A stretch of DNA of 32,000 bases from Acaryochloris thomasi RCC1774 (GCF_003231495.1 NZ_PQWO01000010.1:30001-62000), one strand, 5' to 3'; positions 1-27,025 are shown, counted from the stretch's first letter. A program made the numbers and translations. Notes: generated by a model not told the origin, from the letters alone.

Positions 1-1684
1 ATGGGGCAATAGAAAAATCATTGAGACAACGCTCAGTAGAAGCTCGATCTCGAAGAGTAATATGATTAGAAAGCCTAAAGATTTCAGAAACAACCTGCAT
101 ATAAATTGGTTGTGACAATGGTCCAAGACCACATCCTTCAATCCTGGCAATTGAATTATATTTTGCACTTTGGATAAAAGCATAAAGGATATGATTGAGA
201 GGCTCAATATCCATTAAAGGGCCGCCGCCAACAACCATCTCATCAACTTCTGCGCAAACGCTATCAAAGTTCTGAGTATAAGTTTCGACAATAGTAATTT
301 CACCAAGCTCCATTTCTTTTATTGTCCATTGAGATATAAATGGGAAGAGACTGGAGAGATAGATTGTCTTAGGAGGAATAGATCGAGTTCGGAGATTTCG
401 AACGATAGTCGATAATATAGCCTTATCGCCTACAGTTTCAGTTCCATACCAACCAAGAATTAATACTTTTTGAGAGTTTAAGTTAGAAAAATCATAACTA
501 AGGGATTCAATCTTAGAATATTTTATTGACTTGCTAATAAGAAGATCACATTTATATTTGTTTTTCCTAATACGAGAAAATATTTTCTCGTTCAATAATT
601 CATTTATAGTCAAAGACTCATGGTAGTCATGAATACAAGAGGAACAATCATTCTCGATAATCGCCTCCCTTGTTCTTAGATTCTGAAAATAGATATTTGA
701 TGCAGATTCGTTTAAAGAATTACCAAGGACTGGAGATTTAGGGGAGCAATATAGTAAATCGCCTGATGAGGCTAAAACTACGGCATTTGATTGATAAGGA
801 CATCCAATTTGTCTTGGCTTACCCTCCGTTAGCATTTTCCTTATATTCCTATATGTCTTTTTGTAAATTTCATCTGTTTCAAAAGCATGCTCTAGACGGA
901 AGAAAAAAAGACCTAGATGATAGGAAGTAACATCATCAAATGCTCTTATAAATTGAGATTGCTCAGCGTTATATAATCTATCTATAAATTCTGCTACTCT
1001 AAAACGTCCATATATTCCTTTTGATATCGCATAGTCGAGAAGTTCATCAACATATAGTGCATTTGAAGCTGAAATAGTACATCCAAAGGATGTATTTATT
1101 CCTGTTTCATTATGAAAAAAATCTAAGAGAGAAGTAGCAGTATTAAAATTGCCCTTACGACCTCGTACCACATCATGTATTTCACTGATGCCATCTAAAG
1201 ATATCATCAAGTTGAAATCAACATCATATGAATTACAAACTTCGGCACAGTCTAAAACTTTCTGTCTAACTGAATTTTCTATGATTCCATTAGTAATTAA
1301 TCCAGCACCTAAAATCTTTGGTTTCTTAGTACAAATTACTTCAAAAATCTCAGAAAGATCAGACCTCAGGGTCGGCTCACCACCACTCACACCAATGTAT
1401 TTTATATCACTAAATAATGGGTCTAGTAATACTATACTTAGTTCAGAAGGGCTGATCTCCTTGCTTTTTTTGTTTTTCCATATCAAGCACATCTGGCAGC
1501 GAGAATTACATGTATCATTGACCAATAGATTTACGACTGTTGGCTTAGGAGGTACTATCTTTCTTAGTTTTTTAAATCGGAGGTCCCTATAAGCAGACAT
1601 CACAAAGGGTTTAATCTTATTCAGTCTTTCCCTGTAAATCTTTGGGATTAAGCGTTTAGCATAGCTTTTGATATGATTTTTCAT
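1..1684 (-). CDS. Radical SAM protein (CX3CX2C plus twitch/SPASM-like Cys motif) fused to a polysaccharide pyruvyl transferase domain. The C-terminus lies beyond the left window edge.
   Basis: Absent from the supplied ORF track because there is no stop inside the window. I translated the minus strand from the ATG (reverse complement of cat at 1682-1684). The frame stays open for 561 codons down to position 2. Sequence: MKNHIKSYAKRL..VNLLVNDTCNSRCQMCLIW..YIGVSGGEPTLR..CPYQSNAVVLASSGDLLYC..CSSCIHD..KVLILGWYGTETVGDKAILSTIV..MVVGGGPLMD. I checked positions 481-661 triplet by triplet and found no stop at the domain junction. The + ORF at 1149..1592 is its antisense shadow. Confidence 0.8.
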   Translation of the reverse strand, partial: MKNHIKSYAKRLIPKIYRERLNKIKPFVMSAYRDLRFKKLRKIVPPKPTVVNLLVNDTCNSRCQMCLIWKNKKSKEISPSELSIVLLDPLFSDIKYIGVSGGEPTLRSDLSEIFEVICTKKPKILGAGLITNGIIENSVRQKVLDCAEVCNSYDVDFNLMISLDGISEIHDVVRGRKGNFNTATSLLDFFHNETGINTSFGCTISASNALYVDELLDYAISKGIYGRFRVAEFIDRLYNAEQSQFIRAFDDVTSYHLGLFFFRLEHAFETDEIYKKTYRNIRKMLTEGKPRQIGCPYQSNAVVLASSGDLLYCSPKSPVLGNSLNESASNIYFQNLRTREAIIENDCSSCIHDYHESLTINELLNEKIFSRIRKNKYKCDLLISKSIKYSKIESLSYDFSNLNSQKVLILGWYGTETVGDKAILSTIVRNLRTRSIPPKTIYLSSLFPFISQWTIKEMELGEITIVETYTQNFDSVCAEVDEMVVGGGPLMDIEPLNHILYAFIQSAKYNSIARIEGCGLGPLSQPIYMQVVSEIFRLSNHITLRDRASTERCLNDFSIAP

Positions 1685-1711
1685 CACTGACAATTATCTA
1701 TATATAGAGCA

Positions 1712-2488
1712 TTAGATGTAATTAAAATACTTTAGTAAAGTAGCAGCCTCTTCTAATATGAAATCTTCATCCTCACTGGAAAAGTGATTTTTCCAATCGC
1801 CACTTATCCCTTTTCTTACAAATATTGTTGATTTTTCTTCTGCATTTAAATCTTTAAACGGACGTCCTCTCTCGGCTTCAATTCTCTGCATTCTTTCGAA
1901 GGAAGAAGATTTTACAGCAGCCTTGATTTCCTCTTCGTTAAATCTATCTTTCCACAAAATACTTGCAAGCTTAGATACTTCTAAACAAGGATTTTTTAGT
2001 AAATCCTCATACCTAATTATTGAGATAATATTCGACGCATTAATCCATGAGTTGACGTGATCATGCCATCGACTCGGGAAAATATCTTGCTTTCTAATAA
2101 ATTTCGAGAATGTCATATCTAACATTAATTTTTTTCGTAAATAGTGATAATAGGAGACATATACATCTCTCGCGTCTCTCACAAGGTATATTACTTTAGG
2201 ATAGTTTTTGTTAAATAAATGATGACTTTTTATTATTCTTGGCCTTGATAAATTCTCAAGGATTTTACTATGCACACCAATCTCGGGAATGACTGAGATA
2301 GAGGTGTGAAAATCAATATCATCCTCTGTCTCAGTTATTAAATTTGCGATGATAAACCGAAGCCATGTATTCCCTGACTTTGGATAAGAGACTAGAAATG
2401 TATCATCAGGAAAAATTACTTCTTTAGCCCCCCCACCCCTAAATATTCGTGCCTTTACTTTTTTTGCAAACATAATTAAATTCTTCAA
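1712..2488 (-). CDS. PAPS-dependent sulfotransferase (Sulfotransfer_1-like)
   Basis: 258 aa. The 5'-PSB loop is YPKSGNTWLRF, the 3'-PB motif is RDARDVYVSYYH, and the C-terminal RKGISGDWKNHFS is typical of this family. It lies 27 nt upstream of the rSAM fusion gene and 3 nt downstream of wzt. Confidence 0.85.
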   Translation of the reverse strand: MKNLIMFAKKVKARIFRGGGAKEVIFPDDTFLVSYPKSGNTWLRFIIANLITETEDDIDFHTSISVIPEIGVHSKILENLSRPRIIKSHHLFNKNYPKVIYLVRDARDVYVSYYHYLRKKLMLDMTFSKFIRKQDIFPSRWHDHVNSWINASNIISIIRYEDLLKNPCLEVSKLASILWKDRFNEEEIKAAVKSSSFERMQRIEAERGRPFKDLNAEEKSTIFVRKGISGDWKNHFSSEDEDFILEEAATLLKYFNYI

Positions 2489-2491
2489 AAA

Positions 2492-3778
2492 TCATTTTTT
2501 GTTGTATGTTTTCCAGCTCGCCTGCGAACGAATTAGACCTTCATTCTTTCCTCTTGCATTATCATTTATGCTAATATCTGCAATCTCTAGATATAATACA
2601 CTGTCGATACTTATAAAATTTTTTACCCCTCTCATGCCAGCGTTGATTTTTAGTGAAAATTGTCCGGAATTCAGAAAATTTCCTGGAATTTTACATCGAC
2701 TTACATAACGTCCTGGGCATCGAGATGCACCTATCTCTTCGCCATAAACATCATAGGTATCAAATAGTTTGACCCCACTAAAAGTGTTGACAGTTACTCC
2801 AATCCTGTAAGAGGTAATATCCTTTAATAGATCGTACTCTATTTCAATATAAAAATCAGATCTTGGATCGATATGTGAAGTGATTTTCCCTTGATTGTTT
2901 ACAATGCGGATAGCTTTCAATAAAAATTCATTTACATTTAGATTGGCTATACCTTTTTTCCATATTTTTTCGCCTTTCTTAGTTGCATTAGAGCTTAAAT
3001 ATTGTGCAACAATATGCTCTGCATTATCGTTTGCACGGAGCGTTCCATTCTCAATCCAAAAGGCACTTTGACAAAGTTGAGTCACAGCTCCCATATTATG
3101 GCTGACGAACAAGACAGTTCGCCCCTTATTTGTGGCGATATCTTCCATTTTACCTAAACATTTATTTTGGAAAGCAATGTCTCCAACAGCTAAGACTTCA
3201 TCAACGACAAGAATTTCTGGTTCCAAATGTGCAGCGACAGCAAAGGCTAATCTGACATACATGCCACTCGAATATCGTTTTACTGGGGTATCTAAAAACT
3301 TTTCAACCTCAGCAAAATCAACGATCTCTTCAAATTTACGTTTAATTTCAAATCTGCTCATCCCCAAAATAGCACCATTCAGATAGATATTTTCTCTACC
3401 AGTCAGTTCTGGATGAAAGCCCGTACCCACTTCTAATAAACTAGCAACTCTCCCATTAATAAAGATCCGCCCAGTGGTCGGTTCAGTAATACGGCTAAGG
3501 ACCTTTAGAAGAGTCGATTTTCCAGCACCATTCCTGCCAATAATGCCAACGCGATCGCCTTGTTTAATCTCAAACGAGACATCGCTCAATGCCCAGAAAT
3601 CTTCTTTCGTAGGCCCCTCACCACTGTTGTTGCTCAGTGGATTAATATATCTTCCAACGGCTTTAGCCCTATCCGCCAATACATCCCGTAGGGCCTTGTA
3701 TTGCGATTGCTCTGCCTGCTTATAACCAATAATGTATTTCTTACCTAGATTCTCAGCCTTGATAACAGTCTCAGACAT
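2492..3778 (-). CDS. wzt: Polysaccharide/O-antigen ABC exporter ATP-binding subunit (Wzt/TagH/KpsT type) with a C-terminal extension of about 180 aa
   Basis: 428 aa. Walker A is GRNGAGKSTLLK, the ABC signature is YSSGMYVRLAFAVA, and Walker B is ILVVDEVLAVGD. Residues from about 250 to 428 form an extra non-NBD domain, comparable to the Wzt C-terminal glycan-binding domains. Confidence 0.85.
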   Translation of the reverse strand: MSETVIKAENLGKKYIIGYKQAEQSQYKALRDVLADRAKAVGRYINPLSNNSGEGPTKEDFWALSDVSFEIKQGDRVGIIGRNGAGKSTLLKVLSRITEPTTGRIFINGRVASLLEVGTGFHPELTGRENIYLNGAILGMSRFEIKRKFEEIVDFAEVEKFLDTPVKRYSSGMYVRLAFAVAAHLEPEILVVDEVLAVGDIAFQNKCLGKMEDIATNKGRTVLFVSHNMGAVTQLCQSAFWIENGTLRANDNAEHIVAQYLSSNATKKGEKIWKKGIANLNVNEFLLKAIRIVNNQGKITSHIDPRSDFYIEIEYDLLKDITSYRIGVTVNTFSGVKLFDTYDVYGEEIGASRCPGRYVSRCKIPGNFLNSGQFSLKINAGMRGVKNFISIDSVLYLEIADISINDNARGKNEGLIRSQASWKTYNKK

Positions 3779-3788
3779 AACTCACCTC

Positions 3789-4625
3789 TCAAATTACATC
3801 TGCAAATGTGCGTTCCATTCGGCGGAAATACCAGATACCACTCCCCAACAGAAACAGTACTAGCCCTAATGACAACGCAAAACCTAAACCATAGAGTTGT
3901 GTCTCGTGGCCTAAGATAGACCAACGAAAACCGTCGATAACCCCGACCATTGGGTTAAGAAAGTAGAGCAACCGCCATCTCTCGGGCACAATGCTACTGC
4001 TAAAACCAACTGGAGAGATATAGAGTCCAAACTGGACAACAAACGGCACGATGTATCGAAAATCTCGATACTGAACATTAAGTGCAGCCAACCACAATCC
4101 AACCCCCATCGCTGCAGCAAAGGCAATCATAATAAACAGCGGCAGTACTAAAATGCGCCAACTGGGTACAAAGTTATACCAGGCCATTAATCCCACCATA
4201 ATCATCCCCGAGATCAAAAAATCCACAAAGCTGACAATTACAGCGCTGGTGGGAATAATTAAGCGAGGGAAATATACCTTCGACAGCAAGTTAGAATTCG
4301 AGATCAGACTATTGCTGCATTCTGTCAGTGCATTTGCGAAAAACTGCCAAGGTAACATTGCGGCAAAAACTAGAATGGGATAAGGCACTCCCTCAGATGG
4401 GAGTTTAGCCAAATTACCAAAGACAACGGTAAACACCATCATTGTCAAGAATGGCCGAATTAAAGCCCAAGCAATACCAATTACTGTTTGTTTATAGCGC
4501 ACCAAAACATCACGCCATGCGAGGAAATAGAACAGCTCTCGATATCGCCATAAGTCTTGCCAGTACTGGCGTTCAGTACGTCCAGCTTCAATAATTAATT
4601 CTGGCGGATGTTGCTGTTTGCGCAT
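3789..4625 (-). CDS. wzm: ABC-2 type polysaccharide exporter permease (Wzm/TagG/KpsM type)
   Basis: 278 aa and polytopic. The N-terminal YRELFYFLAWRDVLVRYKQTVIGIAWALIRP is typical of ABC-2 permeases. It sits 10 nt upstream of wzt on the same strand. Confidence 0.85.
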   Translation of the reverse strand: MRKQQHPPELIIEAGRTERQYWQDLWRYRELFYFLAWRDVLVRYKQTVIGIAWALIRPFLTMMVFTVVFGNLAKLPSEGVPYPILVFAAMLPWQFFANALTECSNSLISNSNLLSKVYFPRLIIPTSAVIVSFVDFLISGMIMVGLMAWYNFVPSWRILVLPLFIMIAFAAAMGVGLWLAALNVQYRDFRYIVPFVVQFGLYISPVGFSSSIVPERWRLLYFLNPMVGVIDGFRWSILGHETQLYGLGFALSLGLVLFLLGSGIWYFRRMERTFADVI

Positions 4626-4935
4626 TAAAGAACCGTATGTTAAACAGCGGGTGGCTCATCCATAACATACCCATACTGAGGCATTTTTTGTCAGAGCAAG
4701 ACAGAGCAGCAGCATTTCAGTAATAGTGAGGAACAAGTATATACGGTCTTACCCCCCTGTCCCCTTCAATCAGATACAAGCAGTAGAGTCTCACCATTTT
4801 TTATGAAGCAACGACAAAGATATGGCTACATACCCCCTTTTATCTCGTAAGGCTCACTAATCTGTGTCTTACAGCAAGATGTCTCTTTCTATGAAACCTA
4901 GGGAAAAACATCAATATTTTTGATCCTGTCTCTCT

Positions 4936-5760
4936 ATGAGTGATACAAAGCAAGATAACCACAGAAAGCATCATTTACTGGGTGTTCTATTAAATATCAC
5001 AAGTTATGAGGACGCTTGCGATCGCATCTCGAACTGGGCACTGACCAAACAATCCTGCTACATCATTGCAGCAAACGTTCACGTCGTAATGACGGCTTAC
5101 TGGAATTCCGCCTATCGACAAGTCGTGAATCACGCGGCAATGGTTACCCCCGATGGAATGCCCTTAGTTTTGGCACTGCGCTGGTTAGGCTGGCCTCAGG
5201 CCACCAGAGTCTATGGCCCAGATTTAATGCTGCACTGCTGTCAGCGGGCGGCTCAAGATAAACTACCCATCTATTTGTATGGCGGGACAAATGCCATGCT
5301 GAAAAAGCTACAGCAAAATCTTGTGCTGCGCTTTCCAGAATTAAAAATTGTAGGGGCATACTCCCCTCCCTTCCGAGACCTAACCTTAGAAGAAGAGCAG
5401 CAAAGTCTTGAGCAAATCCATCAAAGTGGTGCAGCTATTGTCTTTGTCGCCCTCGGCTGTCCCAAACAAGAGCTATGGATGGCAAGACAGCAGGGTCAAC
5501 TAGACGCCGTCATGATTGGTGTAGGCGCAGCCTTTGGTTTTCATAGCGGCGAAGTGAGTCAAGCTCCACGATGGATGATGGCACTCAGTTTAGAATGGCT
5601 ATATCGTTTAATGACTGAACCTAAGCGTCTCTGGAAACGCTATCTCATAAACAATCCAGCCTTCGTTTTGTTACTGAGTCGAGAACTTCTTCGGCATACC
5701 TTGAAGCAAGATCAAACTTCCGCAGTGTCCCAAGCCAATGATCGCGACATCGCTGGGTAG
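4936..5760 (+). CDS. WecG/TagA/CpsF family (GT26) glycosyltransferase, a probable ManNAc-type transferase
   Basis: 274 aa. Family hallmarks are MVTPDGMPLVLALRWLG, IYLYGG and FVALGCPKQELWM. It is transcribed divergently from wzm across a 310-bp gap. Confidence 0.8.
   Translation: MSDTKQDNHRKHHLLGVLLNITSYEDACDRISNWALTKQSCYIIAANVHVVMTAYWNSAYRQVVNHAAMVTPDGMPLVLALRWLGWPQATRVYGPDLMLHCCQRAAQDKLPIYLYGGTNAMLKKLQQNLVLRFPELKIVGAYSPPFRDLTLEEEQQSLEQIHQSGAAIVFVALGCPKQELWMARQQGQLDAVMIGVGAAFGFHSGEVSQAPRWMMALSLEWLYRLMTEPKRLWKRYLINNPAFVLLLSRELLRHTLKQDQTSAVSQANDRDIAG
5018..5025. repeat. HIP1 (GCGATCGC), one representative of 12 dispersed copies
   Basis: Copies I found by eye are at 3551, 5018, 6198, 6366, 6724, 7110, 8582, 19085, 19291, 22447, 25976 and 29903 (start coordinates). 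This octameric palindrome is highly over-represented in many cyanobacterial genomes. Confidence 0.85.
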
Positions 5761-5796: not shown

Positions 5797-7245
5797 TTGC
5801 TTGCTGTGCACCAACCCACCCCAAAAACACCGCTTCACGAGGATATTCGAGCGATTCGTTCAGCTAACCCTGGACGCAAAAGTTTACAGCAACGGCTAAA
5901 TATGGGCGTGCTCGTAGCTGTAGATTTAGCGGCTCTTGGCTGCGCTTGGAGAATTGCAGCACAACTCAATAAGCTTTACTCTCCTATTCCCTCTCAACTT
6001 GTATGGTGGAACTTCCTAGGGCTACCAAGCTTGTTTTGGGTCTTTTCTGGGATAACTCTAGTAATTTTGTTTAGTGGTGGACTTTACAGCCGCGCCATCG
6101 CCTGGAAAGACTATGTGCGCTCTGCCCAATTGGTCAGCCTCGCCTACCTGTTGGCTCTAGTCGTCAGTTACTTCTATGACCCAAAGCTGGATGCCCCGCG
6201 ATCGCTCTTTTTCAGTGCCTGGTTCCTGAGCGTTACTTTCATCATCGGGTTTAGACTCCTCTCCACCCTTTTGCTCCAGCAGCTTGAGCAGAGACAGCCC
6301 ACAGTAGCTCTATTCCTAATTGCTCCTGCTGAGCGCTTGCCGCGTCTCTCCAAATTGCTAGAGCAGCGATCGCACTACCACATTGTCGGTGCCGCCCTTG
6401 CCTCCACTGCCAGCGCGAACGCAACTCTCAATTCCATCCTCAGATCTAAAGCCCAGGAAGTCATCGTCGCAGAACTACCGCCAACGGAACTTGCCTCTAC
6501 CCTCTATTGGCAACTCCGGCGCTTAGGAATAACCCTCCGCCTGATACCATCCAGCGTAGAAGTGCTGCATCGTCGCGGTATCTCCGAAATTTTTGCCGGA
6601 ATGCCCACCCTGCGAGCCGCGCCGCCGATGCTTCTAGGGCTAGACTACCGGACTAAACGAGCTATTGATATGGTTGCTGCCGCCTGCGGGTTGTTGGTGC
6701 TGGCTCCTTTTTTAATTGGAGTTGCGATCGCAATTAAAACAACCTCTCCCGGCTCCGTTTTTTACCGGCAAGAGCGCGTCGGACTCCACGGCAAAGTCTT
6801 TCAGATGTGGAAATTTCGCACAATGGTAGCGAACGCTGCTATGCTTCAGGCCAAACTAGAAGCACAGAACGAATCACAGGACGGGATTCTATTCAAGATA
6901 AAAGATGACCCGCGCATGACTAAGATTGGTAGCTTTCTACGCCGGACCAGCATCGACGAACTGCCTCAACTTATTAATGTATTAGTCGGACAAATGAGTT
7001 TAGTGGGACCACGCCCATTACCCATTCGAGATGTTGAGCGTTTTAACTCATGGCATCATATTCGGCATCAGGTCGTTCCCGGCATAACTGGGCTGTGGCA
7101 AATCTCAGGGCGATCGCACATCGACGACTTTGACCAAGCCGCCCGCCTCGATCTCTACTACATCGACAACTGGACGCTGAATCTAGACTTTGAAATCCTG
7201 GTTGAAACCGTTCGGATTGTTCTGTTTGCCAGTGGTGCCTATTAG
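5797..7245 (+). CDS. Polyprenyl-phosphate glycosylphosphotransferase (WbaP-like, Bac_transf domain), the initiating enzyme for Und-P-linked glycans
   Basis: 482 aa with N-terminal TM helices. The C-terminal domain reads KRAIDMVAAACGLLVLAPF..SPGSVFYRQERVGLHGKVFQMWKFRTM..DELPQLINVLVGQMSLVGPRP. The track start is TTG at 5797. An in-frame ATG at 5902 is an alternative start. Confidence 0.85.
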   Translation: MLAVHQPTPKTPLHEDIRAIRSANPGRKSLQQRLNMGVLVAVDLAALGCAWRIAAQLNKLYSPIPSQLVWWNFLGLPSLFWVFSGITLVILFSGGLYSRAIAWKDYVRSAQLVSLAYLLALVVSYFYDPKLDAPRSLFFSAWFLSVTFIIGFRLLSTLLLQQLEQRQPTVALFLIAPAERLPRLSKLLEQRSHYHIVGAALASTASANATLNSILRSKAQEVIVAELPPTELASTLYWQLRRLGITLRLIPSSVEVLHRRGISEIFAGMPTLRAAPPMLLGLDYRTKRAIDMVAAACGLLVLAPFLIGVAIAIKTTSPGSVFYRQERVGLHGKVFQMWKFRTMVANAAMLQAKLEAQNESQDGILFKIKDDPRMTKIGSFLRRTSIDELPQLINVLVGQMSLVGPRPLPIRDVERFNSWHHIRHQVVPGITGLWQISGRSHIDDFDQAARLDLYYIDNWTLNLDFEILVETVRIVLFASGAY

Positions 7246-7252
7246 AGCAAGC

Positions 7253-9781
7253 CTAGCTTTCAGAAGCCTGTATAGATCGCCATAAGCTTTCGCAGAAAGG
7301 CTGTAGAGCGATATCTAATGCTGGACTATAAGCAAGAGAGGGGAAAAGCTCAGCCAAAAACTGAGACACCGCAGCATTCTCGACCACTGGGAAAAAGTCA
7401 GACGGAGCAGGACCATCAATGTGGCGACTGAGAACCCCAAAACCAGCACGAACGCGCGGATATTGTTGTAAGGGAGCATTTTTCTTAACCCACTGTTCGA
7501 AAGAATCAGAGCGCTCCATACCTGCCTGAAGAGCCTGAACATCCTGCGGTTTCGGTAGAGCTTGATTGGCCTGCAGTAGCGCTCTTTCAAGCCACTGGAT
7601 CCGTTGTTGAGGCTCTAACCAAGCCTTGAGGATAGGGATATTAGTAGAGATAGCCTCACCTCTAGAGATCGATAAAACAGCCTTTCCAAGGGGGGGGGCA
7701 CTTTTTTCCCATTGAGCTGCCGCAGCGGAGAGATTGCCCTGCCACCAATACACGCCACCTAAACATTGATGCAAGTAGGCCGTTAAAGAATCTTGGGCGG
7801 AGTGAGTCTTTAGCAGTTGTTGATAGAGCTGCACCACCTCTTCTTGTACTTGAGGGTAAAACGTTGCTGTCGGCGGCGATTGCAGCAAGGGACTGGTGAG
7901 AAAGAGAGGATCTCTGAGAATTTCAAGAGCAATGGCCTGCACCCCTAAATCTGCTTTGCCCTGTAACAGCAGACTTTGCCCCAAACTATAGAATCCCCCG
8001 CGTTTGGCAGGCATAAGCTGCGTAGATTTAAGAAAAGATTCAGTTGATTGGGACGGCTGGCGATTCAAGAGCTGTTGCCAACCCAGACTACTGGTCCCTG
8101 ACTCTTGAGAAGGAGACACCTGAACGTGACGCTCGAAAAACTCCAGGCTTTGCCTAGCTCTAACTTGATTAATCTGAGCGTCATCACTACGGACACTGCC
8201 CAAGTTCCAGCCCAACTGATAGGAGTAGTAAGGCTCCCAAGGAGCAAGCTGATGGGCCTGCTCTAGATCCGTAGTAAAGGATTCAAATTGCTCTTCTGCT
8301 AAAGCCGCAAAACCTCGACTAGAAAGCTGCCACGCTCGATGAATAGGCGCGAGCCATATCCCTACAGCCAACAATAGTCCCACTAGTCCCCAGCATAAAA
8401 TCTTGATACGCTTCGTGCTGTGCACCTCAGAAGATAACGGTAAATATTGGCGCAGAAGCGATAGCAGACCGACTAGGTAAAGAATCAGGGTGCCGCTGAT
8501 GCAAACAATATCGAGCTGATAATCAGTCAAGGCAACGATGCCATACCCGCCTAGCCCCGCAAGCAGACTCCAGGACATAATGCGATCGCCCTCTAATTCT
8601 ACGGGCTGTGCTTGCCACAGCCTTACCCCCCAATACACCAACCAGCCAATCATAAAGATGCATAGAGCAATCCCCAGCGCACCCAACTCAGCCCAAACCT
8701 GGGCAGGCGTCCCGTGGAGTTGATACACCAGTTCAGCTTCTCGGCCAGCCCAAGCCGGTCGATAGGACTGGTAAAGTAACGGAACACTGCCGGGTCCGGC
8801 ACCCAAGAGTGGGTGAGCCAGCCCCATTGCCCATCCCGTTGCGTTCGTAATCAAACGAAATGCAACGGTGCTCCCCGCACTATCCCGAGAGAAAGCACTC
8901 ACTAGCAGCGCACGCAGCCGATTGTTCGCCAGTACCGTACCGAAAAGACCAATCAATAGGCCCAGCCCCATCAGCCAACGGAAGCGTGGCGATAGGCGCT
9001 TCAGTAGTACTACTCCAGAGACGGCTACTAGAGCCATGCCCAACCACCCTCCACGGGAACTAGTGGTATAAAGATCCACAAGCCCTAAAAGCGCACCCAG
9101 GCCCCATACCCATTTCCATTTCGATGAGGCCCGTAGGCAAAGCCCTATAAGCAGCGGCAAGGTCAAAACTAGAAAACCCGCCACATAATTTTGGTGTCCA
9201 ATGGGTGCCCAGTTGCGCAGCTCCAATACTGAAAAATCAAAGGAGCGCTCCAGTCCCGAAGCTCGTAAGTCAGCCAAACGGTTCATTTCTGGTAGCAGGG
9301 TTTGAAAGAACCAGAGGCTAAGACTCACCGCAATAAATGCCAAACTCAAGCCACCTTGGGCAGCGAGGAGCTTCTGTCTTCGTGACGGACTAGAACACCA
9401 AGTGTTGAGAGCATAGAGGGCGGCTATTGCACATAATGCAGCCCAACTATGCCAACGAGCCTGCTGCGGGAATTGAGCCAAGAGCGTTGACCCCAATACC
9501 CCCAAAACGGTGAGCGCTGTTCCATAATCAAGGCCATAGCCCAATCGGGTGAGCTGAAACTGCATCCACCACGTTCTGAGCAGCCACAGCCAGGGCAGAA
9601 ATAAGCCAACCTGCCAAAGCAAGACCCAGGGCCAAGCCACCACTAAACTACTGCTGTCGGGCAATAGCGTAAATAGAGCATAAAAGCCAAATGCGAGGGG
9701 GCCAAACAGATCTCTAGAAGAAGATGGCTGGACAGATGTCTTTAGAGACGCAGTTCCATTAGACTCCATTGCAGCTCCCAA
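7253..9781 (-). CDS. O-antigen ligase / Wzy_C family polytopic membrane protein with a C-terminal soluble helical-repeat (TPR-like) domain of about 360 aa
   Basis: 842 aa with many TM segments through about residue 480. The motif YTTSSRGGWLGMALVAV is typical of the Wzy_C/O-antigen ligase loop. The track start is TTG at 9781, but the ATG at 9769 (MESNG..) is the more likely start. The gene converges on the phosphoglycosyl transferase gene with a 7-nt gap. Confidence 0.75.
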   Translation of the reverse strand: MGAAMESNGTASLKTSVQPSSSRDLFGPLAFGFYALFTLLPDSSSLVVAWPWVLLWQVGLFLPWLWLLRTWWMQFQLTRLGYGLDYGTALTVLGVLGSTLLAQFPQQARWHSWAALCAIAALYALNTWCSSPSRRQKLLAAQGGLSLAFIAVSLSLWFFQTLLPEMNRLADLRASGLERSFDFSVLELRNWAPIGHQNYVAGFLVLTLPLLIGLCLRASSKWKWVWGLGALLGLVDLYTTSSRGGWLGMALVAVSGVVLLKRLSPRFRWLMGLGLLIGLFGTVLANNRLRALLVSAFSRDSAGSTVAFRLITNATGWAMGLAHPLLGAGPGSVPLLYQSYRPAWAGREAELVYQLHGTPAQVWAELGALGIALCIFMIGWLVYWGVRLWQAQPVELEGDRIMSWSLLAGLGGYGIVALTDYQLDIVCISGTLILYLVGLLSLLRQYLPLSSEVHSTKRIKILCWGLVGLLLAVGIWLAPIHRAWQLSSRGFAALAEEQFESFTTDLEQAHQLAPWEPYYSYQLGWNLGSVRSDDAQINQVRARQSLEFFERHVQVSPSQESGTSSLGWQQLLNRQPSQSTESFLKSTQLMPAKRGGFYSLGQSLLLQGKADLGVQAIALEILRDPLFLTSPLLQSPPTATFYPQVQEEVVQLYQQLLKTHSAQDSLTAYLHQCLGGVYWWQGNLSAAAAQWEKSAPPLGKAVLSISRGEAISTNIPILKAWLEPQQRIQWLERALLQANQALPKPQDVQALQAGMERSDSFEQWVKKNAPLQQYPRVRAGFGVLSRHIDGPAPSDFFPVVENAAVSQFLAELFPSLAYSPALDIALQPFCESLWRSIQASES
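7690..7698. repeat. G9 (coding-strand C9) homopolymer inside the O-antigen-ligase-family CDS
   Basis: The sequence reads ccaagggggggggcactttttt. On the coding strand this is AGT GCC CCC CCC CTT (..SAPPL.., around residue 695 of 842). Confidence 0.9.
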
Positions 9782-10611: not shown

Positions 10612-11124
10612 ATGAAATCTACATTCACTGCTAAGTACCTCCAGCACCTAACTAGCAAGAAGAAGAACAACGAAGGATTCACGCTAATTGAGCTTTTGGT
10701 TGTGATCATCATCGTCGGCGTTTTGGCTGCCATTGCTCTACCTAGCTTCTTAAATCAGATTGGTAAAGCTCGGGGTTCTGAAGCTAAATCTACTCTAGGC
10801 ACAATCAACCGTTCTCAGCAGGCTTATCGTTTAGAAAATAATACTTTTGCAACCGCGACTGGTACTCTAGACGCTAGAATCACCGAAAAATTCTATAATG
10901 TTGGCGTCACTGCAGCGGGTGTCAATACTACCTTTGCAGCTCATACAGCAGCAGCAGTCAATGGTGATCTCAAGTCCTATGGTTCTGCAGTTTCTCAAGC
11001 TGCAGATGGTACATCTTTTTCACAGATTGTTTGTGAGACAGAGGCAAACACTCAAACTGCACCAGCGGTTACATCTACAGCTGCGGGCCATTGTGCTACT
11101 CTCAACAGCAAGTCTGTTGAGTAA
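10612..11124 (+). CDS. pilA: Type IV pilin (PilA-like) with a prepilin N-terminal cleavage/methylation domain
   Basis: 170 aa. The leader MKSTFTAKYLQHLTSKKKNNEG is followed by FTLIELLVVIIIVGVLAAIALP, giving G-1, F+1 and E+5. Two C-terminal Cys residues (CETEANTQTAPAVTSTAAGHC) form a D-region-type loop. Confidence 0.9.
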   Translation: MKSTFTAKYLQHLTSKKKNNEGFTLIELLVVIIIVGVLAAIALPSFLNQIGKARGSEAKSTLGTINRSQQAYRLENNTFATATGTLDARITEKFYNVGVTAAGVNTTFAAHTAAAVNGDLKSYGSAVSQAADGTSFSQIVCETEANTQTAPAVTSTAAGHCATLNSKSVE

Positions 11125-11173
11125 GTAACTTTCACAGATTGGTGAAGGCTACAGCTGCTCAACCATAAGAACA

Positions 11174-11199
11174 TCAGGTAGGTGGAAACATCTACCTGA
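11174..11199 (+). terminator. Hairpin 50 nt after the first pilin stop codon, a candidate intrinsic terminator
   Basis: The arms tcaggtaggt and atctacctga enclose the loop ggaaac. This gives a 10-bp stem with one G-U pair and a 6-nt loop. No clear U-tract follows (caccaataaaatc), so confidence is moderate. Confidence 0.45.
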
Positions 11200-11925
11200 C
11201 ACCAATAAAATCTTCTATAAGATATCGGAAATATTCTAGACCAGAAGTATAAACGCAGGTCATACCTTGGCAGTTTAAGATATGAGTGACACATATTTAA
11301 ATCTTTAACACTACAGTAGTACATATCACACATTCCGAATATTTTCAGACCATAAAGTTTGGATTATATGAAGAACCTACAGAAGGCAAATCCTACTGTT
11401 GCAGCAGTGAAGTGCAAATTGCAAGTCTCACTTCAAGCCCAAACCTAGGTAATCGATGCTTCCATTGGCTTTCAGAGAGTCAATTTACAAATATGAAAAC
11501 AAACTGAGCAGTCAATTGCATTTCAGAGGCTTGCTCTCGACAAAAACATATAAGCCAGCTAATACCTATAGCTAGTTGCTCTCGTTGACGAGACAATCAA
11601 AATTTCAAAGACTTTACTTTACTAGAACTTCAAAGTTCTAGCAATATTATCAGTGCAGTGCACCTTAGCACAATAGTCCGGACACTTTTTTAGTGCCTGG
11701 ATGACCATTCCTCTAGGGTTACGGAGTACCAATGATCATTAAATCAAAGTCAGGTCTGAACCTGAGTTGCATTTAATTCGATGTTTCCTACACTCCATAT
11801 ACTGAAAGCCTTATGGCTACGTTCTGAAAACTGTCCGGAGTATTGTCAGCAAACATTGCACATAAAACATTAATCCTCAAATATCAAAACGCTACAGCTT
11901 CGGTATTTTATTGCAATTTATCTAA

Positions 11926-12417
11926 TTGAAAACAATGTTAATGCTCAATCTATTATATCGGAATAAAGGCTTTACACTGATTGAGTTACTAGTAGCAATT
12001 GTTATTATTGGCGCATTGGGAGCAATAGCTTTACCCAGCTACTTAAATCAAGCTTCTAAGGCTAAAGGATCTGAAGCAAAATCGCATCTAGGAAATATCA
12101 AGACAGCGCAAGCAGCCTATCGGCTAGAGACTAACGCTTTTGCAACGAGCTTAGGCGATTTAGATGTAAGAGTTACCGGTAAATTTTACACCTATTCAGT
12201 TGAAGGCACTCCTACTTCTCTATATGCAGAGCATCGAGCAGTTCCTGGAGCAGGGAATAATGACTTAAGGCGCTATGCTTCTGCAGTATCTCAGCCCAAT
12301 GAGTCAGTATTGACATCAGTTATTTGTCAAAGCGACAGCTCTCTTGGTAGTGGTGGAACCGTGAACGTAGTCGATACAACGCTTGCCTGCGATACTGGAA
12401 GCAGTAAAATTGACTGA
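11926..12417 (+). CDS. Type IV pilin paralog (PilA-like)
   Basis: 163 aa. The sequence ..LLYRNKG FTLIELLVAIVIIGALGAIALPSYLNQASKAKGSEAKS.. aligns closely with the first pilin through about residue 75 of the mature protein and again at Y.SAVSQ and the C..C loop. The track start is TTG at 11926. In-frame ATGs at 11935 and 11941 are alternatives. Confidence 0.85.
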   Translation: MKTMLMLNLLYRNKGFTLIELLVAIVIIGALGAIALPSYLNQASKAKGSEAKSHLGNIKTAQAAYRLETNAFATSLGDLDVRVTGKFYTYSVEGTPTSLYAEHRAVPGAGNNDLRRYASAVSQPNESVLTSVICQSDSSLGSGGTVNVVDTTLACDTGSSKID

Positions 12418-12438
12418 TAAATAGATTTCGATTAGCTT

Positions 12439-14622
12439 ATGGATAATACTTATTCAAGCGATCAAGCGAAAAACTTAGTCCAAGCAGCAAAGTCTTCTTT
12501 CTCTGAAGGCAGGTATTCTGAAGCCGCTCAACTCTATGACCAGTTAGTTTCGCTACAACCTAAGATCAGCACACATTACTGGTACTTGGGTTTATCACTG
12601 CTGCTGATAGAGCAGGAGTCTGAAGCTCAGGCGACATGGCTCGAAGGGGTAGTAGAGTTTACAGAAGACGGCACACTTTCTCTTTTAAGCATTCTAAAAT
12701 TTGAAGTAGAAAGGCTCGAGACAGCCTTCAATATGCAATCAGCATGGTTGGTTCGAAAATACATCCAAGAGATTGACCCTGATGATTTAGAGAACCTCTT
12801 GATAGCTCTTGATCATTCTGCCAACTTAGGATTTCTTGCAGAGTCTGACGAACTAATCTATCAAGTTATAGATTTAATTGGCCAGCATGAACATTTCGAT
12901 AGCGATGCGTTGCCAAAAGTAGTAAGCAGCCTACTCATAAATTCCCCTCATTCTACTGCTGCTGTTGATTTTATAGAGATCTGTATAGAGAAATACACAA
13001 ACTCACAAAAATTAGCCAGTATTCTTTTCTCGATCATTAATGATATTCAGCAAAATCACTCTATTCGCAGAGAAAACGTTATTAGGCTAGTTCATTTATG
13101 TCTAGACTTCTCACCTCAAAACTCATCTGTCTTAATTAACCTAATCTCTCTCTATCAAGAGATAGGTCAATACAATAGAAGCATTGAGTATGGGAAACAA
13201 CTTGTTGAGGTCTCTAGAACTAAATTTGATAGGATCTCGGCAATCTATCTCCTTGTAAAAGGATTTCTTTTGTCTGGCGGCAAGTGGCTAGAAGCAGAAA
13301 GTTCCTATCGAGAGTGCCATCATCTAATTCAAAGTTTTCTGAGCGAATCTCCCAGTCTTGACTTAGATAAATCAATGCGCCTGCTCGTGATTACAGGAGT
13401 AAGTCCCTACTTCTCAGATAATCCAGCAGCACATAACATCATTCGAAAGCAAATAATTCAGTCTTCTTGCACGAATTTTTCTAGGCAATCGATAGATACG
13501 GAGAAGCGGCATCAATCTAACAGGCCTCTGCGAATAGGATATATATCATCTTGTTTCCGCAGGCACTCTGTTGCATGGTTGTCTCGGTGGATTTTTCAGT
13601 ATCATAATTCCGATAAGTTTCACATATATGCTTATTCGCTTAAGCGTACAGATGATGATTTACAGAACTTTATTGCCAATCAGGTACAGAATTTTGTTCA
13701 TGTCTCCCCTGACGCAAAACCTACAGAAATAGCAAAGCATATCCAGCAAGATGAAATTGATATTTTGGTGGATTTAGATAGTATTACTTCTAAGAAAATC
13801 TGTTCTGTCATGATGTTGAAGCCTGCGCCTATCCAAGTTACTTGGTTGGGATCAGATGCATCTGGTGTACCAGTAATTGATTATTTCATGGCGGATCAAT
13901 ATGTTTTGCCTGATACTGCTCACGATTATTACACCTCAAAAATCTGGCGTTTACCTAAGACATACGTCGCGGTTGATGGCTTTGAAGCTAGCACACCCAC
14001 GTTACGTCGTTGTCATTTAAGTATTCCCAACGACGCTGTTGTCTTTTTTAGCTCTCAGACAGGATATAAGCGACACCAAAAAACAGTTCACTTGCAGATG
14101 AAGATCCTGCGCGAAGTTCCTGGTAGTTTTTTCCTGGTGAGAGGATTATCTGATGGAGATTCTGTCCAAGCCTTTTTTGCAGATATAGCTGAGCAGGAAG
14201 GTGTAAGTTTCGACCGTTTTCGTTTTTTGCCAACTTTCCCTTCAGAAGAAATTCATCGAGCCAATTTACAAATTGCCGATGTCGTTCTAGATACCTATCC
14301 ATACAATGGTGCAACTACAACTTTAGAAACGTTATGGATGGGTATTCCTTTAGTTACTCGCGTAGGTGAGCAGTTCGCAGCCCGTAATAGCTATGCCTTC
14401 ATGATGAACGTAGGTGTTGCTGAAGGCATAGCTTGGACTGACGAAGAATATATAGAATGGGGCATCCGCCTGGGCACAGATGAAGCACTGCGCAAGAAAG
14501 TTGCTTGGCAGCTCAAGCAATCGAGACACACCTCACCCCTTTGGGATGCCAAGAAATTTACTTGCGAGATGGAAAACGCCTACTGCCAGATGTGGGCCAA
14601 GTACACCGAACAAGTCAGCTAA
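12439..14622 (+). CDS. TPR-containing GT41 family glycosyltransferase (O-linked GlcNAc transferase / SPINDLY-like)
   Basis: 727 aa. The N-terminus has TPR-like helices (GRYSEAAQLYDQLVSLQP..). The C-terminal GT41 blocks are LRIGYISSCFRRHSVAWL, KPAPIQVTWLGSDASGVPVIDYFMAD, FFSSQTGYKRHQK, and DTYPYNGATTTLETLWMGIPLVTRVGEQFAARNS. It starts 21 nt after the second pilin stop. Confidence 0.85.
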   Translation: MDNTYSSDQAKNLVQAAKSSFSEGRYSEAAQLYDQLVSLQPKISTHYWYLGLSLLLIEQESEAQATWLEGVVEFTEDGTLSLLSILKFEVERLETAFNMQSAWLVRKYIQEIDPDDLENLLIALDHSANLGFLAESDELIYQVIDLIGQHEHFDSDALPKVVSSLLINSPHSTAAVDFIEICIEKYTNSQKLASILFSIINDIQQNHSIRRENVIRLVHLCLDFSPQNSSVLINLISLYQEIGQYNRSIEYGKQLVEVSRTKFDRISAIYLLVKGFLLSGGKWLEAESSYRECHHLIQSFLSESPSLDLDKSMRLLVITGVSPYFSDNPAAHNIIRKQIIQSSCTNFSRQSIDTEKRHQSNRPLRIGYISSCFRRHSVAWLSRWIFQYHNSDKFHIYAYSLKRTDDDLQNFIANQVQNFVHVSPDAKPTEIAKHIQQDEIDILVDLDSITSKKICSVMMLKPAPIQVTWLGSDASGVPVIDYFMADQYVLPDTAHDYYTSKIWRLPKTYVAVDGFEASTPTLRRCHLSIPNDAVVFFSSQTGYKRHQKTVHLQMKILREVPGSFFLVRGLSDGDSVQAFFADIAEQEGVSFDRFRFLPTFPSEEIHRANLQIADVVLDTYPYNGATTTLETLWMGIPLVTRVGEQFAARNSYAFMMNVGVAEGIAWTDEEYIEWGIRLGTDEALRKKVAWQLKQSRHTSPLWDAKKFTCEMENAYCQMWAKYTEQVS

Positions 14623-14657: not shown

Positions 14658-16244
14658 TCAGCTAACTGGCTGAGTGAGTGGTAAGTCCTGAGGCCATGCA
14701 ATTAAATTGAGGCGATCCTGATAGTCTCTCAATGAGGCAAGGGGAATCAAGGCTTTTGTAAATGGCTGATAACCGTGGATTTGATAGCCCTCCTTCTTCA
14801 GATAGTTCGTCACTTCGAGGTTGCTGCCCTGACTGCCAGCAATATTTTCGTAAAGAATAATAGGTTTGAACTTTGCTAATAGTGTTTTACTTCCTGCAAG
14901 CACAGATAGCTCATGCCCTTCAGCATCAATCTTTAGAAAGTCTATCTGCTGAAGATTTTCGCGATTACAAATCTCATCCAGCGTAAAACAATTCACCTTC
15001 TCTGCTCCATCTGGGGCATTCTCTTCCGCAACCAGCTCATTTAACTCACTCGCTGAATTGAGCGATAAATAGGAGGTACCGTTACGATCGCTAGCAGCCC
15101 CCGCATAAATCGTCACCCAATCAAACTGGTTCACTAGGCGAGTCTCCTCCAAGCAACGAATACAGCCTGAGAAGGGTTCCACAGCAATCACCCGTCCCTC
15201 AGAACCAACCCGCTTAGCGGCGCTAAACGTATACACGCCCACATTGGCTCCCACATCAATCACAGTCATCCCTGGCTGCAGCCAATGCCGCCAAAATTCC
15301 ATCTCATCCTCGAACCAGTCCCCTTCCGCCAGCAGCACACTCGTCACAATGCTACGAAAGCTAGGCTCAACAGCAAGCGTAATCTCTTGGTCAAACGCAA
15401 CATAGGTATTCGGTTGCTCCGCCGTCACTTGAGTCCACTGCTCAGAGGCGTCGTGCAAATTGCCACTCGTTAAACTCTGGGCAGTTGTCAACCAATGCTC
15501 AGCAGTTTGGCACTGCCCCAAATCACGATACGCAATATGAAGCGCCTGGAGTACAGACATTTCCTGGGGCGCTAATTCTGCGGCTCGATGAAGATACATC
15601 AGACTTTCCCAAGCCCCGTTCATGATGCCTGAAACTCCTGCCCTTAGATTAATTGACACAGAGCTGAGAATTGTTTGATTGGCAAGTTGCAGAAACCGAA
15701 AGCCTGTTGGGCTATAAAAGACAAACTGCGATCTCCACAGCACTTCACTCGCCAACTTCAGCCCCTGGGCAAATGCTGTCTGCTCTTCCATCATGTTGGC
15801 AAACCAACTCTGCATATCTTCGCTAGTTATCTGCCAAGTTAGAGGTCGATACATCAGTCCCTTCGGCACGTCTGAAAGCAGAGAAATTGGCTGCAACGCA
15901 CTCAGAATTAAATTGAAAGAGATGTCACAGGCTGTTTCACGATCTCCCAGCATGCTTTGCAGTAAAGCTAGATGAACCTGACAAAGCGAATGACTACCTC
16001 CTTGTTGCAAGGCATCCACCGCCATCTCGACATAAAACGATCGCATCATCCCATCATCAGACCGCTCAGCCTCAATTAGAGCCATGACCCCCACATTATT
16101 GCAATCCAACTCAGTCTTCGGATTCTCCCAATCCGTCTGCTCCAAGATCTCTATGACTCCACCCCTCATCTCAGATACCACCTCAACACCCAGAGCATCA
16201 AGATACTGGAAATAGGTCTCAGAATAGGACGTGCGATCACTCAT
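14658..16244 (-). CDS. FkbM-family SAM-dependent methyltransferase with an N-terminal domain of about 300 aa and unknown function
   Basis: 528 aa. The C-terminal third reads MTVIDVGANVGVYTFSAAKRVGSEGRVIAVEP..FLKIDAEGHELSVLAGS, which is the Methyltransf_21/FkbM pattern. I recognise no motif in the N-terminal region. The gene converges on the GT41 gene with a 35-nt gap. Confidence 0.8.
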   Translation of the reverse strand: MSDRTSYSETYFQYLDALGVEVVSEMRGGVIEILEQTDWENPKTELDCNNVGVMALIEAERSDDGMMRSFYVEMAVDALQQGGSHSLCQVHLALLQSMLGDRETACDISFNLILSALQPISLLSDVPKGLMYRPLTWQITSEDMQSWFANMMEEQTAFAQGLKLASEVLWRSQFVFYSPTGFRFLQLANQTILSSVSINLRAGVSGIMNGAWESLMYLHRAAELAPQEMSVLQALHIAYRDLGQCQTAEHWLTTAQSLTSGNLHDASEQWTQVTAEQPNTYVAFDQEITLAVEPSFRSIVTSVLLAEGDWFEDEMEFWRHWLQPGMTVIDVGANVGVYTFSAAKRVGSEGRVIAVEPFSGCIRCLEETRLVNQFDWVTIYAGAASDRNGTSYLSLNSASELNELVAEENAPDGAEKVNCFTLDEICNRENLQQIDFLKIDAEGHELSVLAGSKTLLAKFKPIILYENIAGSQGSNLEVTNYLKKEGYQIHGYQPFTKALIPLASLRDYQDRLNLIAWPQDLPLTQPVS

Positions 16245-26975: not shown

Positions 26976-27025
26976 TCGACAAAGGTATAGAGCCTAAACA
27001 GGAAAGGACTTCAAGAACTCAAGCA

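Follow-up and report, generated by a model that had tools for sequence, protein, structure and literature searches.

In Escherichia coli O9a, the genes of an O antigen exported by an ATP-binding cassette (ABC) transporter lie in the order wzm-wzt-wbdD-wbdA, and the carbohydrate-binding module of Wzt reads a methyl-phosphate cap. To our knowledge, methyl, methyl-phosphate and 3-deoxy-D-manno-octulosonic acid (Kdo) are the only cap chemistries that license export through transporters whose Wzt carries such a carbohydrate-binding domain (CBD). In this work, we analyze a 32,000-nucleotide stretch of the Acaryochloris thomasi RCC1774 genome (GCF_003231495.1 NZ_PQWO01000010.1:30001-62000, hereafter the window), at the left end of which wzm and wzt are followed by genes encoding a sulfotransferase of the 3'-phosphoadenosine 5'-phosphosulfate (PAPS) type and a fusion of a radical S-adenosylmethionine (SAM) domain with a pyruvyltransferase domain, which we call FUS. 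Within a gene cluster for a surface polysaccharide, these four genes make up the end devoted to export and finishing. From a comparison with about 90 related loci we propose, with evenly balanced confidence, that a lipid-linked surface glycan is exported here by an ABC-dependent route and that its exporter recognizes an epitope sulfated by the enzyme encoded next to it.

Methyl and methyl-phosphate are established export caps, and the CBD-bearing Wzt proteins characterized to date read the non-reducing terminus of the chain (PMC9445017, PMC11231755). The closest solved structure to the window's transporter is that of Aquifex aeolicus WzmWzt (8dku, 7k2t), whose CBD binds a 3-O-methyl sugar cap (PMC9445017). 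Klebsiella pneumoniae O1b makes an ABC-exported O antigen with a terminal pyruvate, added by WbbZ at the non-reducing end (PMC10629545); its transporter lacks a CBD, and export is independent of the cap (PMC10629545, PMC11231755). Given this pathway, a statement in the initial annotation of the window, made from the sequence alone, that no pyruvate-capped Wzm/Wzt route had been described is out of date. In cyanobacteria, Wzm/Wzt of Synechococcus elongatus exports O antigen, related Synechocystis transporters affect exopolysaccharide (PMC4390846), and sulfotransferase genes have been noted bioinformatically in ABC-type polysaccharide clusters (PMC8205485). The synechan (xss) cluster of Synechocystis likewise includes dedicated sulfotransferases, but it follows a Wzx/Wzy route with repeat-unit sulfation, and no exporter-recognition role has been proposed for its sulfate (PMC8205485). 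A further parallel is the O-antigen cluster of Aeromonas salmonicida, in which a sulfotransferase-domain gene lies directly after a wzt encoding a 438-residue protein of CBD-bearing length (PMC4483657).

Organization of the wzm-wzt-sulfotransferase-FUS unit

The four genes lie on the minus strand, which had been left unstated at first, and are separated by exactly 10, 3 and 27 nucleotides, as originally described. Gaps of this size leave no space for separate promoters or terminators, which bears out the initial inference of co-transcription. The first gene, wzm (3789..4625), encodes a 278-residue ABC-2 permease of a polysaccharide exporter (Pfam ABC2_membrane, 64.4 bits). It is followed by wzt (2492..3778; 428 residues), composed of a nucleotide-binding half (residues 1–270, 2969..3778; Pfam ABC_tran, 82 bits) and a C-terminal CBD (residues 271–428 plus the stop codon, 2492..2968; Pfam Wzt_C). 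The sulfotransferase gene (1712..2488; 258 residues; Sulfotransfer_1, E = 5e-38) starts with TTG, with an alternative ATG 15 nucleotides further in, and occupies a variable tailoring slot directly after wzt. FUS (1..1684) begins with the ATG at 1684 and crosses the left edge of the window after 561 of its 763 codons; its full length was taken from a 100%-identical A. thomasi RCC1774 protein (P0001), and Wzt also has a 100%-identical database entry from this strain. Domain profiles agree with the identities first assigned to all four genes. The unit is very probably incomplete in the window, and probably the start of a longer operon, because relatives continue beyond FUS with a family 4 glycosyltransferase (GT4) and further transferases. 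For the same reason, the early claim that the sulfotransferase and FUS are the only tailoring enzymes of the operon is untenable.

Upstream of wzm, a divergent intergenic region (4626..4935), the only sizeable non-coding stretch here, separates the unit from a WecG-family gene and presumably holds the promoters of both units. It contains a single weak sigma-70-like match (minus strand, 4763..4736), not above chance. A consensus scan of the window for promoters and terminators returned matches at chance level, and Rfam gave no family match within the window.

Conserved gene order and a variable slot

A scan for FUS loci, with one genome per species, yielded 80 loci. Their usual context is wzm, wzt with a CBD, zero to three small tailoring genes, FUS and a GT4 gene, and the same order is seen in independent gene calls on metagenome contigs. 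A wzt gene is found within 10 kb of FUS in 59 of the 80 loci and, among the 60 species-level loci whose upstream sequence extends for 5 kb or more, lies upstream on the same strand within 8 kb of FUS in 44, an arrangement far beyond chance. All 54 linked Wzt proteins have a C-terminal extension of 131–212 residues, and Pfam Wzt_C is matched in 48/55 when the window's own Wzt is counted. Immediately downstream of FUS, a GT4 of ~415 residues is encoded in at least 58 of 75 loci.

This order, wzm-wzt(CBD)-slot-FUS-GT4, mirrors wzm-wzt-wbdD-wbdA of E. coli O9a. The E. coli O9a and Klebsiella O3 clusters share with it a CBD-bearing ABC-2 exporter ATPase, a gene for a small-group transferase directly after wzt followed by GT4 genes and, as proposed for the window, completion of the chain in the cytoplasm before export. 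The window differs from them in that the gene after wzt encodes a PAPS sulfotransferase and not a kinase/methyltransferase, that no coiled-coil ruler is visible, that a radical-SAM/pyruvyltransferase is added, and that the dependence of export on a cap is putative.

The slot between wzt and FUS holds cap-type enzymes: methyl-, acetyl- and sulfotransferases, a kinase-methyltransferase and a PhyH dioxygenase. It is empty in ~21 loci and otherwise encodes a hexapeptide acyltransferase (14 loci), a Methyltransf_11 protein (10), a sulfotransferase (9–10), a PhyH dioxygenase (4) or TylF or FkbM methyltransferases. The kinase-plus-methyltransferase slot belongs to a Bacteroidales bin (L031, 3049-4395), where a 449-residue protein that weakly matches kinase-like (APH/ABC1) and methyltransferase profiles resembles WbdD. 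Two other loci (L043, 8225-9933; L047, 8350-9978) carry both a PhyH-family dioxygenase and a sulfotransferase in the slot, a pairing that suggests hydroxylation and then sulfation of one residue.

The Wzt carbohydrate-binding domain follows the slot gene

The permease and ATPase matches (64 and 82 bits) place the window's transporter in the Wzm/Wzt exporter class. The C-terminal extension of Wzt was correctly recognized at the outset as a domain of the recognition type and, by profile and alignment, is the domain expected of the CBD-bearing class of capped-glycan exporters. Wzt_C is matched at residues 287–400 with 32.5 bits (cut-off 30.4), and the closest solved relative, full-length A. aeolicus Wzt (8dku, E = 1e-66), aligns through the CBD up to residue 384, although the two CBDs are only weakly similar.

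Across the FUS loci, Wzt CBDs group by slot content and not by taxonomy. CBD type co-varies with the slot gene, which the ATPase domain does not clearly do: the best cross-phylum CBD match has the same slot class in 30 of 55 cases (permuted mean 15.3, maximum 28 over 5000 permutations), whereas the same test on the ATPase half gives 21/55 (p ~0.07). For the window CBD, each of the six best matches in the FUS set comes from a locus with a sulfotransferase; these loci belong to Planctomycetota, Bacteroidota, a deltaproteobacterium and an unclassified metagenome bin. The ATPase half has its best matches among related loci in cyanobacteria (64–74% identity). One of the cyanobacterial relatives is the cluster of an uncultured cyanobacterium (L012), whose Wzm is 79% identical to the window's; the two CBDs are ~20% identical, though the ATPase halves are 64% identical.

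Independently of FUS, full-length Wzt was used to query 5.8 billion proteins, a search blind to both the sulfotransferase and FUS, and the relatives were then ranked by CBD similarity; a homologue search with the CBD alone as query gave no matches. Each of the six nearest CBD relatives (39–46% CBD identity) carries between one and four sulfotransferase genes, at wzt or no more than two genes from it, and in each of these loci, as in the window, one sulfotransferase gene is located within two genes downstream of wzt. FUS is present in only one of the six (L083), which also carries an orthologous sulfotransferase, 53% identical to the window's; in the other five, the 7 kb downstream of wzt contain no FUS. 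No sulfotransferase occurs in the thirteen cyanobacterial loci that carry other CBD types (0/13), including some whose ATPase halves are as similar or more similar to that of the window (70–72% identity in L081 and L082, 71% in L089, 64% in L012). In the control locus L089, a methyltransferase gene directly follows wzt. By our own arithmetic, sulfotransferase linkage in 7/7 versus 0/13 loci has a Fisher probability of ~1e-5, calculated on loci that are not independent samples.

Among the six, Anabaena sp. UHCC 0451 (L088) deserves separate mention. This culturable strain has three sulfotransferases in its cluster (Sulfotransfer_1, _2 and _4 genes) and, between wzm and wzt, a gene for adenosine 5'-phosphosulfate (APS) kinase, the enzyme that makes PAPS (6361-6915). 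Its cluster is a strong candidate for making a sulfated polysaccharide that leaves the cell through an ABC exporter.

Mosaic composition of the segment

The G+C content at third codon positions (GC3) changes along the unit, from 0.45 in wzm to 0.36 in the ATPase half of wzt, 0.26 in the CBD, 0.30 in the sulfotransferase gene and 0.26 in FUS, against ~0.5 in neighbouring host genes. Identity to the L012 protein is 60–93% across most of the Wzt ATPase domain and falls to 15–25% from around residue 240. The GC3 break and the drop in identity fit a recombination event within wzt in which a CBD-sulfotransferase-FUS cassette was replaced, and the segment has the look of a cassette that was gained laterally and attached to a resident wzm/wzt-ATPase backbone.

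Sulfate as a candidate recognition signal

The sulfotransferase looks active, because all PAPS-binding and catalytic motifs are conserved. Measured against the yardstick of PAPS sulfotransferases (PKxGTTW, a catalytic His, RDxxDxxxS and RKGxxGDWK), the protein reads YPKSGNTW, KSH, RDARDVYVS and RKGISGDWK, all intact, as in PAPS-dependent enzymes. Among solved structures, it is closest to cytosolic SULTs (E = 9e-26), and the motifs are conserved in orthologues, 41–59% identical, from five phyla. Adjacency by chance was considered and rejected, since these orthologues accompany FUS or wzt in five phyla.

The initial annotation had proposed sulfate and/or pyruvate as the export signal or chain-length terminator, or at least as a decoration. 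On the sulfate part, the window CBD is closest to sulfotransferase-linked CBDs, and such comparisons lend real, though indirect, support to sulfate as a putative part of what the exporter recognizes. Pyruvate as the CBD recognition signal is not supported: with FUS missing near wzt in five of the six closest CBD relatives, it was rejected as a determinant of the specificity of the window CBD. The CBD itself offers only a hint of an anionic ligand. Lys377 and Arg383 of the window Wzt align with the methyl-pocket/trap-loop residues Thr346 and Asp354 of A. aeolicus, and a Lys after the trap loop is invariant across the sulfotransferase-linked CBD group, in a part of the alignment that is uncertain in both cases.

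Several observations weigh against a sulfate-reading exporter. Two loci with similar CBDs (L035 and L040) have a methyltransferase and a GT4 in the slot and no sulfotransferase. The nearest CBD relatives often carry several sulfotransferases, so that chain-wide sulfation fits at least equally well and the CBD might bind a sulfated repeat. The sampled loci are not phylogenetically independent, and the compositional gradient could stem partly from stronger constraint on the ATPase half. A. salmonicida is reported to make an O antigen without sulfate despite the sulfotransferase-domain gene next to wzt (PMC4483657); its terminator is the Kdo transferase module of WbbB (PMC4483657). Finally, a coiled-coil ruler terminator, a defining feature of the capped systems characterized so far, was sought in the four genes and none was found, the sulfotransferase being a single-domain protein of 258 residues and the FUS model being compact, with its longest N-terminal helix at residues 15–42; a ruler protein could lie outside the window.

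Some of these points bear on the principal alternative, decoration in place of capping, which we regard as possible though on the unlikely side. According to this explanation, the sulfotransferase and FUS modify repeats along a sulfated, pyruvylated exopolysaccharide or capsule, the CBD binds either the polymer generally or a terminus unrelated to these groups, and sulfation is dispensable for export. Clusters of close CBD relatives with two to four sulfotransferases, one of them with an APS kinase, suggest heavy sulfation, and the absence of a coiled-coil terminator from the four genes points the same way; sulfated cyanobacterial exopolysaccharides are known (PMC8205485), and in one locus (L082) an outer-membrane protein for polysaccharide export (Poly_export) is encoded nearby. 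A general affinity for the polymer would, however, set this CBD apart from the characterized ones, all of which read the chain end (PMC9445017, PMC11231755). Decoration is also at odds with the co-variation of CBD type and slot-gene class across phyla, and with the position of the sulfotransferase gene after wzt, which is that of the terminator gene of E. coli O9a and of the methyltransferase gene in L089.

FUS, a radical-SAM/pyruvyltransferase family

Full-length FUS matches Radical_SAM with 42.9 bits (cut-off 29.5) and PS_pyruv_trans with 55.8 bits (cut-off 25.3); the portion encoded within the window stays below the threshold for the pyruvyltransferase domain (18.9 bits). The radical-SAM motif C59xxxC63xxC66 is encoded at 1487-1510, and the pyruvyltransferase-like domain starts at about residue 405 (nucleotide 472 downwards). 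C59, C63 and C66 are invariant or nearly so in the family, and C295, C313, C347 and C350 are invariant. With a CxxxCxxC motif and C-terminal cysteines as putative ligands of auxiliary clusters, FUS falls within the radical SAM SPASM/twitch proteins. In the second half, R545xxxS549 and H705 are invariant or nearly so, and the first pyruvyltransferase motif reads T417xG419D420 in place of NxGD. The AlphaFold model of the full-length protein is compact and of high confidence (predicted local distance difference test (pLDDT) 92.3; predicted template modelling score (pTM) 0.92). Its N-terminal half matches the structures of SkfB, BlsE, SuiB, viperin and anSME, and its C-terminal half matches GT-B-like UDP-GlcNAc 2-epimerases; WbbZ and Pvg1p were not among the top 50 matches. 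UDP-GlcNAc 2-epimerases have likewise been reported as structural neighbours of WbbZ (PMC10629545). FUS has the RxxxS and His motifs in common with WbbZ, an enzyme of the PS_pyruv_trans fold, but WbbZ is a stand-alone enzyme, whereas FUS is fused to a radical-SAM domain, has TxGD for NxGD and adjoins a CBD-type Wzt.

We know of no characterized member of the FUS family, and literature searches for an enzyme combining radical-SAM and pyruvyltransferase domains returned nothing relevant. An exhaustive profile search recovered 834 representatives at E <= 1e-30, and at least 150 cluster representatives at 50% identity are clearly full-length. The family occurs in eight or more phyla; its loci span Cyanobacteriota, Planctomycetota, Verrucomicrobiota, Acidobacteriota, Bacteroidota, several proteobacterial classes, Chloroflexota, Bacillota (in the 80-locus scan, Paenibacillus) and an actinobacterial bin. 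In the source record, FUS appears as 'Sporulation killing factor maturation protein SkfB' and Wzt as 'Teichoic acids export ATP-binding protein TagH', both automated labels that fall far below curated family cut-offs. A role as an SkfB-type sactipeptide maturase was rejected: the TIGR04403 match reaches 28.8 bits where the cut-off is 300, and the neighbours are polysaccharide genes.

Some FUS proteins are single polypeptides of the form FUS-GT4, FUS-GT4-tetratricopeptide repeat (TPR)-methyltransferase, or larger, from which it follows that FUS and GT4 act together inside an assembly machinery. In four giant polypeptides, P0279 (3783 residues), P0282 (2388), P0299 (2108) and P0277 (1878), a FUS unit shares the chain with GT4, TPR, methyltransferase and GT2 modules, and these proteins look like complete polymerase-finishing assembly lines. 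The presence of the radical-SAM half shows that FUS chemistry is not a plain pyruvate ketal, the product envisaged in the initial annotation.

It is improbable, in our view, that FUS and GT4 form the true chain terminator and make a pyruvate-derived epitope read by the CBD, with the sulfotransferase fine-tuning that residue. The near-constant linkage of FUS to a CBD-type Wzt, at a position equivalent to that of wbdD, is what such a terminator would predict, as are the ~21 loci with no slot gene between wzt and FUS and the fusion of FUS into GT4-TPR-methyltransferase assembly-line proteins; terminal pyruvylation by WbbZ also halts polymerization in vitro (PMC10629545). Yet CBD clusters track the slot gene while FUS stays constant, and five of the six closest CBD relatives do without FUS in the 7 kb downstream of wzt. 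Moreover, the closest FUS homologues (63–64% identical; L081 and L082) sit beside another CBD type and a PhyH dioxygenase, which occupies the slot alone, with no sulfotransferase.

Neighbouring genes and the polymer they may serve

Beyond the divergent intergenic region, the plus strand encodes a WecG/TagA-family glycosyltransferase (4936..5760; Glyco_tran_WecG, E = 1e-62), which likely adds the second sugar of a lipid-linked primer, and a polyprenyl-phosphate sugar-phosphate transferase (PHPT), the initiating enzyme (5797..7245; Bac_transf, E = 3e-66). On the minus strand, a Wzy_C (O-antigen-ligase family) membrane protein of 842 residues (7253..9781; 56 bits) is a candidate ligase. The L012 cluster combines their counterparts with the export genes in one co-directional array: wzm, wzt, FUS, GT4, GT2, GT2, GT4, GT4, WecG, PHPT and Wzy_C. 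The WecG and sugar-phosphate transferase orthologues there are 61% and 57% identical, and a 28%-identical Wzy_C counterpart ends the cluster. Because orthologues of all these genes sit in one L012 array, the three neighbours very probably serve the same glycan as wzm-wzt-FUS.

A TagA-like protein next to the exporter raises the question of a peptidoglycan-linked secondary cell-wall polymer, in which TagA-like, CsaB-like and TagGH-like proteins would make a pyruvylated anchor for S-layer homology (SLH)-domain outer-membrane proteins. TagH models are the best NCBIfam names for Wzt, in line with the name in the source record, there is a weak CsaB match, and FUS loci also occur in Paenibacillus and Chloroflexota. 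However, the TagH models score 205 versus 538 bits and 178 versus 320 bits, and CsaB scores 34 versus 213 bits, far below the curated cut-offs. With no equivalog-level match to TagH or CsaB, the TagGH/CsaB pathway was rejected; it also fits poorly with the Wzt_C domain of Wzt and the adjacent Wzy_C ligase gene, and leaves the sulfotransferase and the radical-SAM domain unexplained. We consider it very improbable.

A block of lower GC content (10612-14622; 38–43%) adjoins the Wzy_C-family gene. It contains two genes for type IV pilin-like proteins (10612-11124 and 11926-12417), both with an N-terminal methylation motif and a Pilin_GH domain, followed by a gene for a 727-residue GT41 (O-GlcNAc-transferase-like) protein. 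The Wzy_C family includes pilin O-glycosylases, and the pilin, GT41 and Wzy_C genes could together encode a module that glycosylates pilin with the exported glycan. A minus-strand gene 10 kb away (14658-16244) encodes a 528-residue FkbM-family methyltransferase with a weak match to RfbT of Vibrio cholerae, the enzyme responsible for methylating the terminal sugar in the Ogawa O antigen; FUS clusters repeatedly contain FkbM methyltransferases, and this gene could belong to the same glycan pathway. Further along the minus strand are a DUF2887 + DUF4351 protein (16334-17323) and two tandem paralogues of 560 and 585 residues (25293-28783), each with a DUF1400 and an alpha/beta-hydrolase domain. 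Nuclease-like genes (PDDEXK_10/DUF3782) similar to the DUF2887 + DUF4351 gene, along with toxin-antitoxin genes, flank the wzm-wzt clusters of L081 and L084, which hints that glycan cassettes sit in variable genome regions.

A proposed route to a sulfated glycan and its implications

If the exporter reads a sulfated epitope, the pathway may proceed as follows. The phosphoglycosyl transferase and the WecG-family transferase would start the chain on undecaprenyl phosphate, and glycosyltransferases, probably encoded just left of the window as in relatives, would elongate it in the cytoplasm. The sulfotransferase would then add a sulfate ester from PAPS, most likely on or near the non-reducing end residue. 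The Wzt CBD would recognize the sulfated epitope and pass the finished chain to the Wzm/Wzt channel, and the Wzy_C-family ligase would join the chain to its acceptor. FUS would work as a unit with the downstream GT4, as seen in relatives, and probably makes a pyruvate-derived, radical-modified residue on the same glycan; it would not set the specificity of the window CBD. The scheme builds on what the sequences show, namely the gene identities, the intact catalytic motifs, the conserved synteny, the co-variation of CBD and tailoring gene and the break in composition; the substrate, the position of the sulfate, the cap dependence of export and the radical-SAM reaction are what we infer.

A broader proposal, which we hold to be doubtful, would generalize from the window to the family. 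The Wzt CBD and the gene after wzt would form an exchangeable lock-and-key cassette, in which the sulfate ester is an export-licensing cap. FUS-GT4 would be a new, phylum-spanning glycan-finishing enzyme that installs a radical-altered pyruvate-derived terminal residue (for example reduced, decarboxylated or C-C linked), itself the substrate of variable tailoring enzymes. Neither a sulfate-reading CBD nor a FUS-GT4 unit was described in the literature searched, with the 2019 terminator/carbohydrate-binding module census outside its reach.

If the proposal for the window is true, a sulfate-dependent signal would be the fourth cap chemistry for CBD-bearing ABC export. It would also open a genetic route to the sulfated glycans of bacteria, a group that matters to biotechnology and is chemically easy to miss when sulfate is present only at chain ends. 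FUS, with its fixed place next to a CBD-type exporter on one side and a GT4 on the other, poses a well-delimited biochemical problem, and the co-variation of the CBD with the gene after wzt is a rule by which cap chemistry can be predicted from sequence across many phyla.

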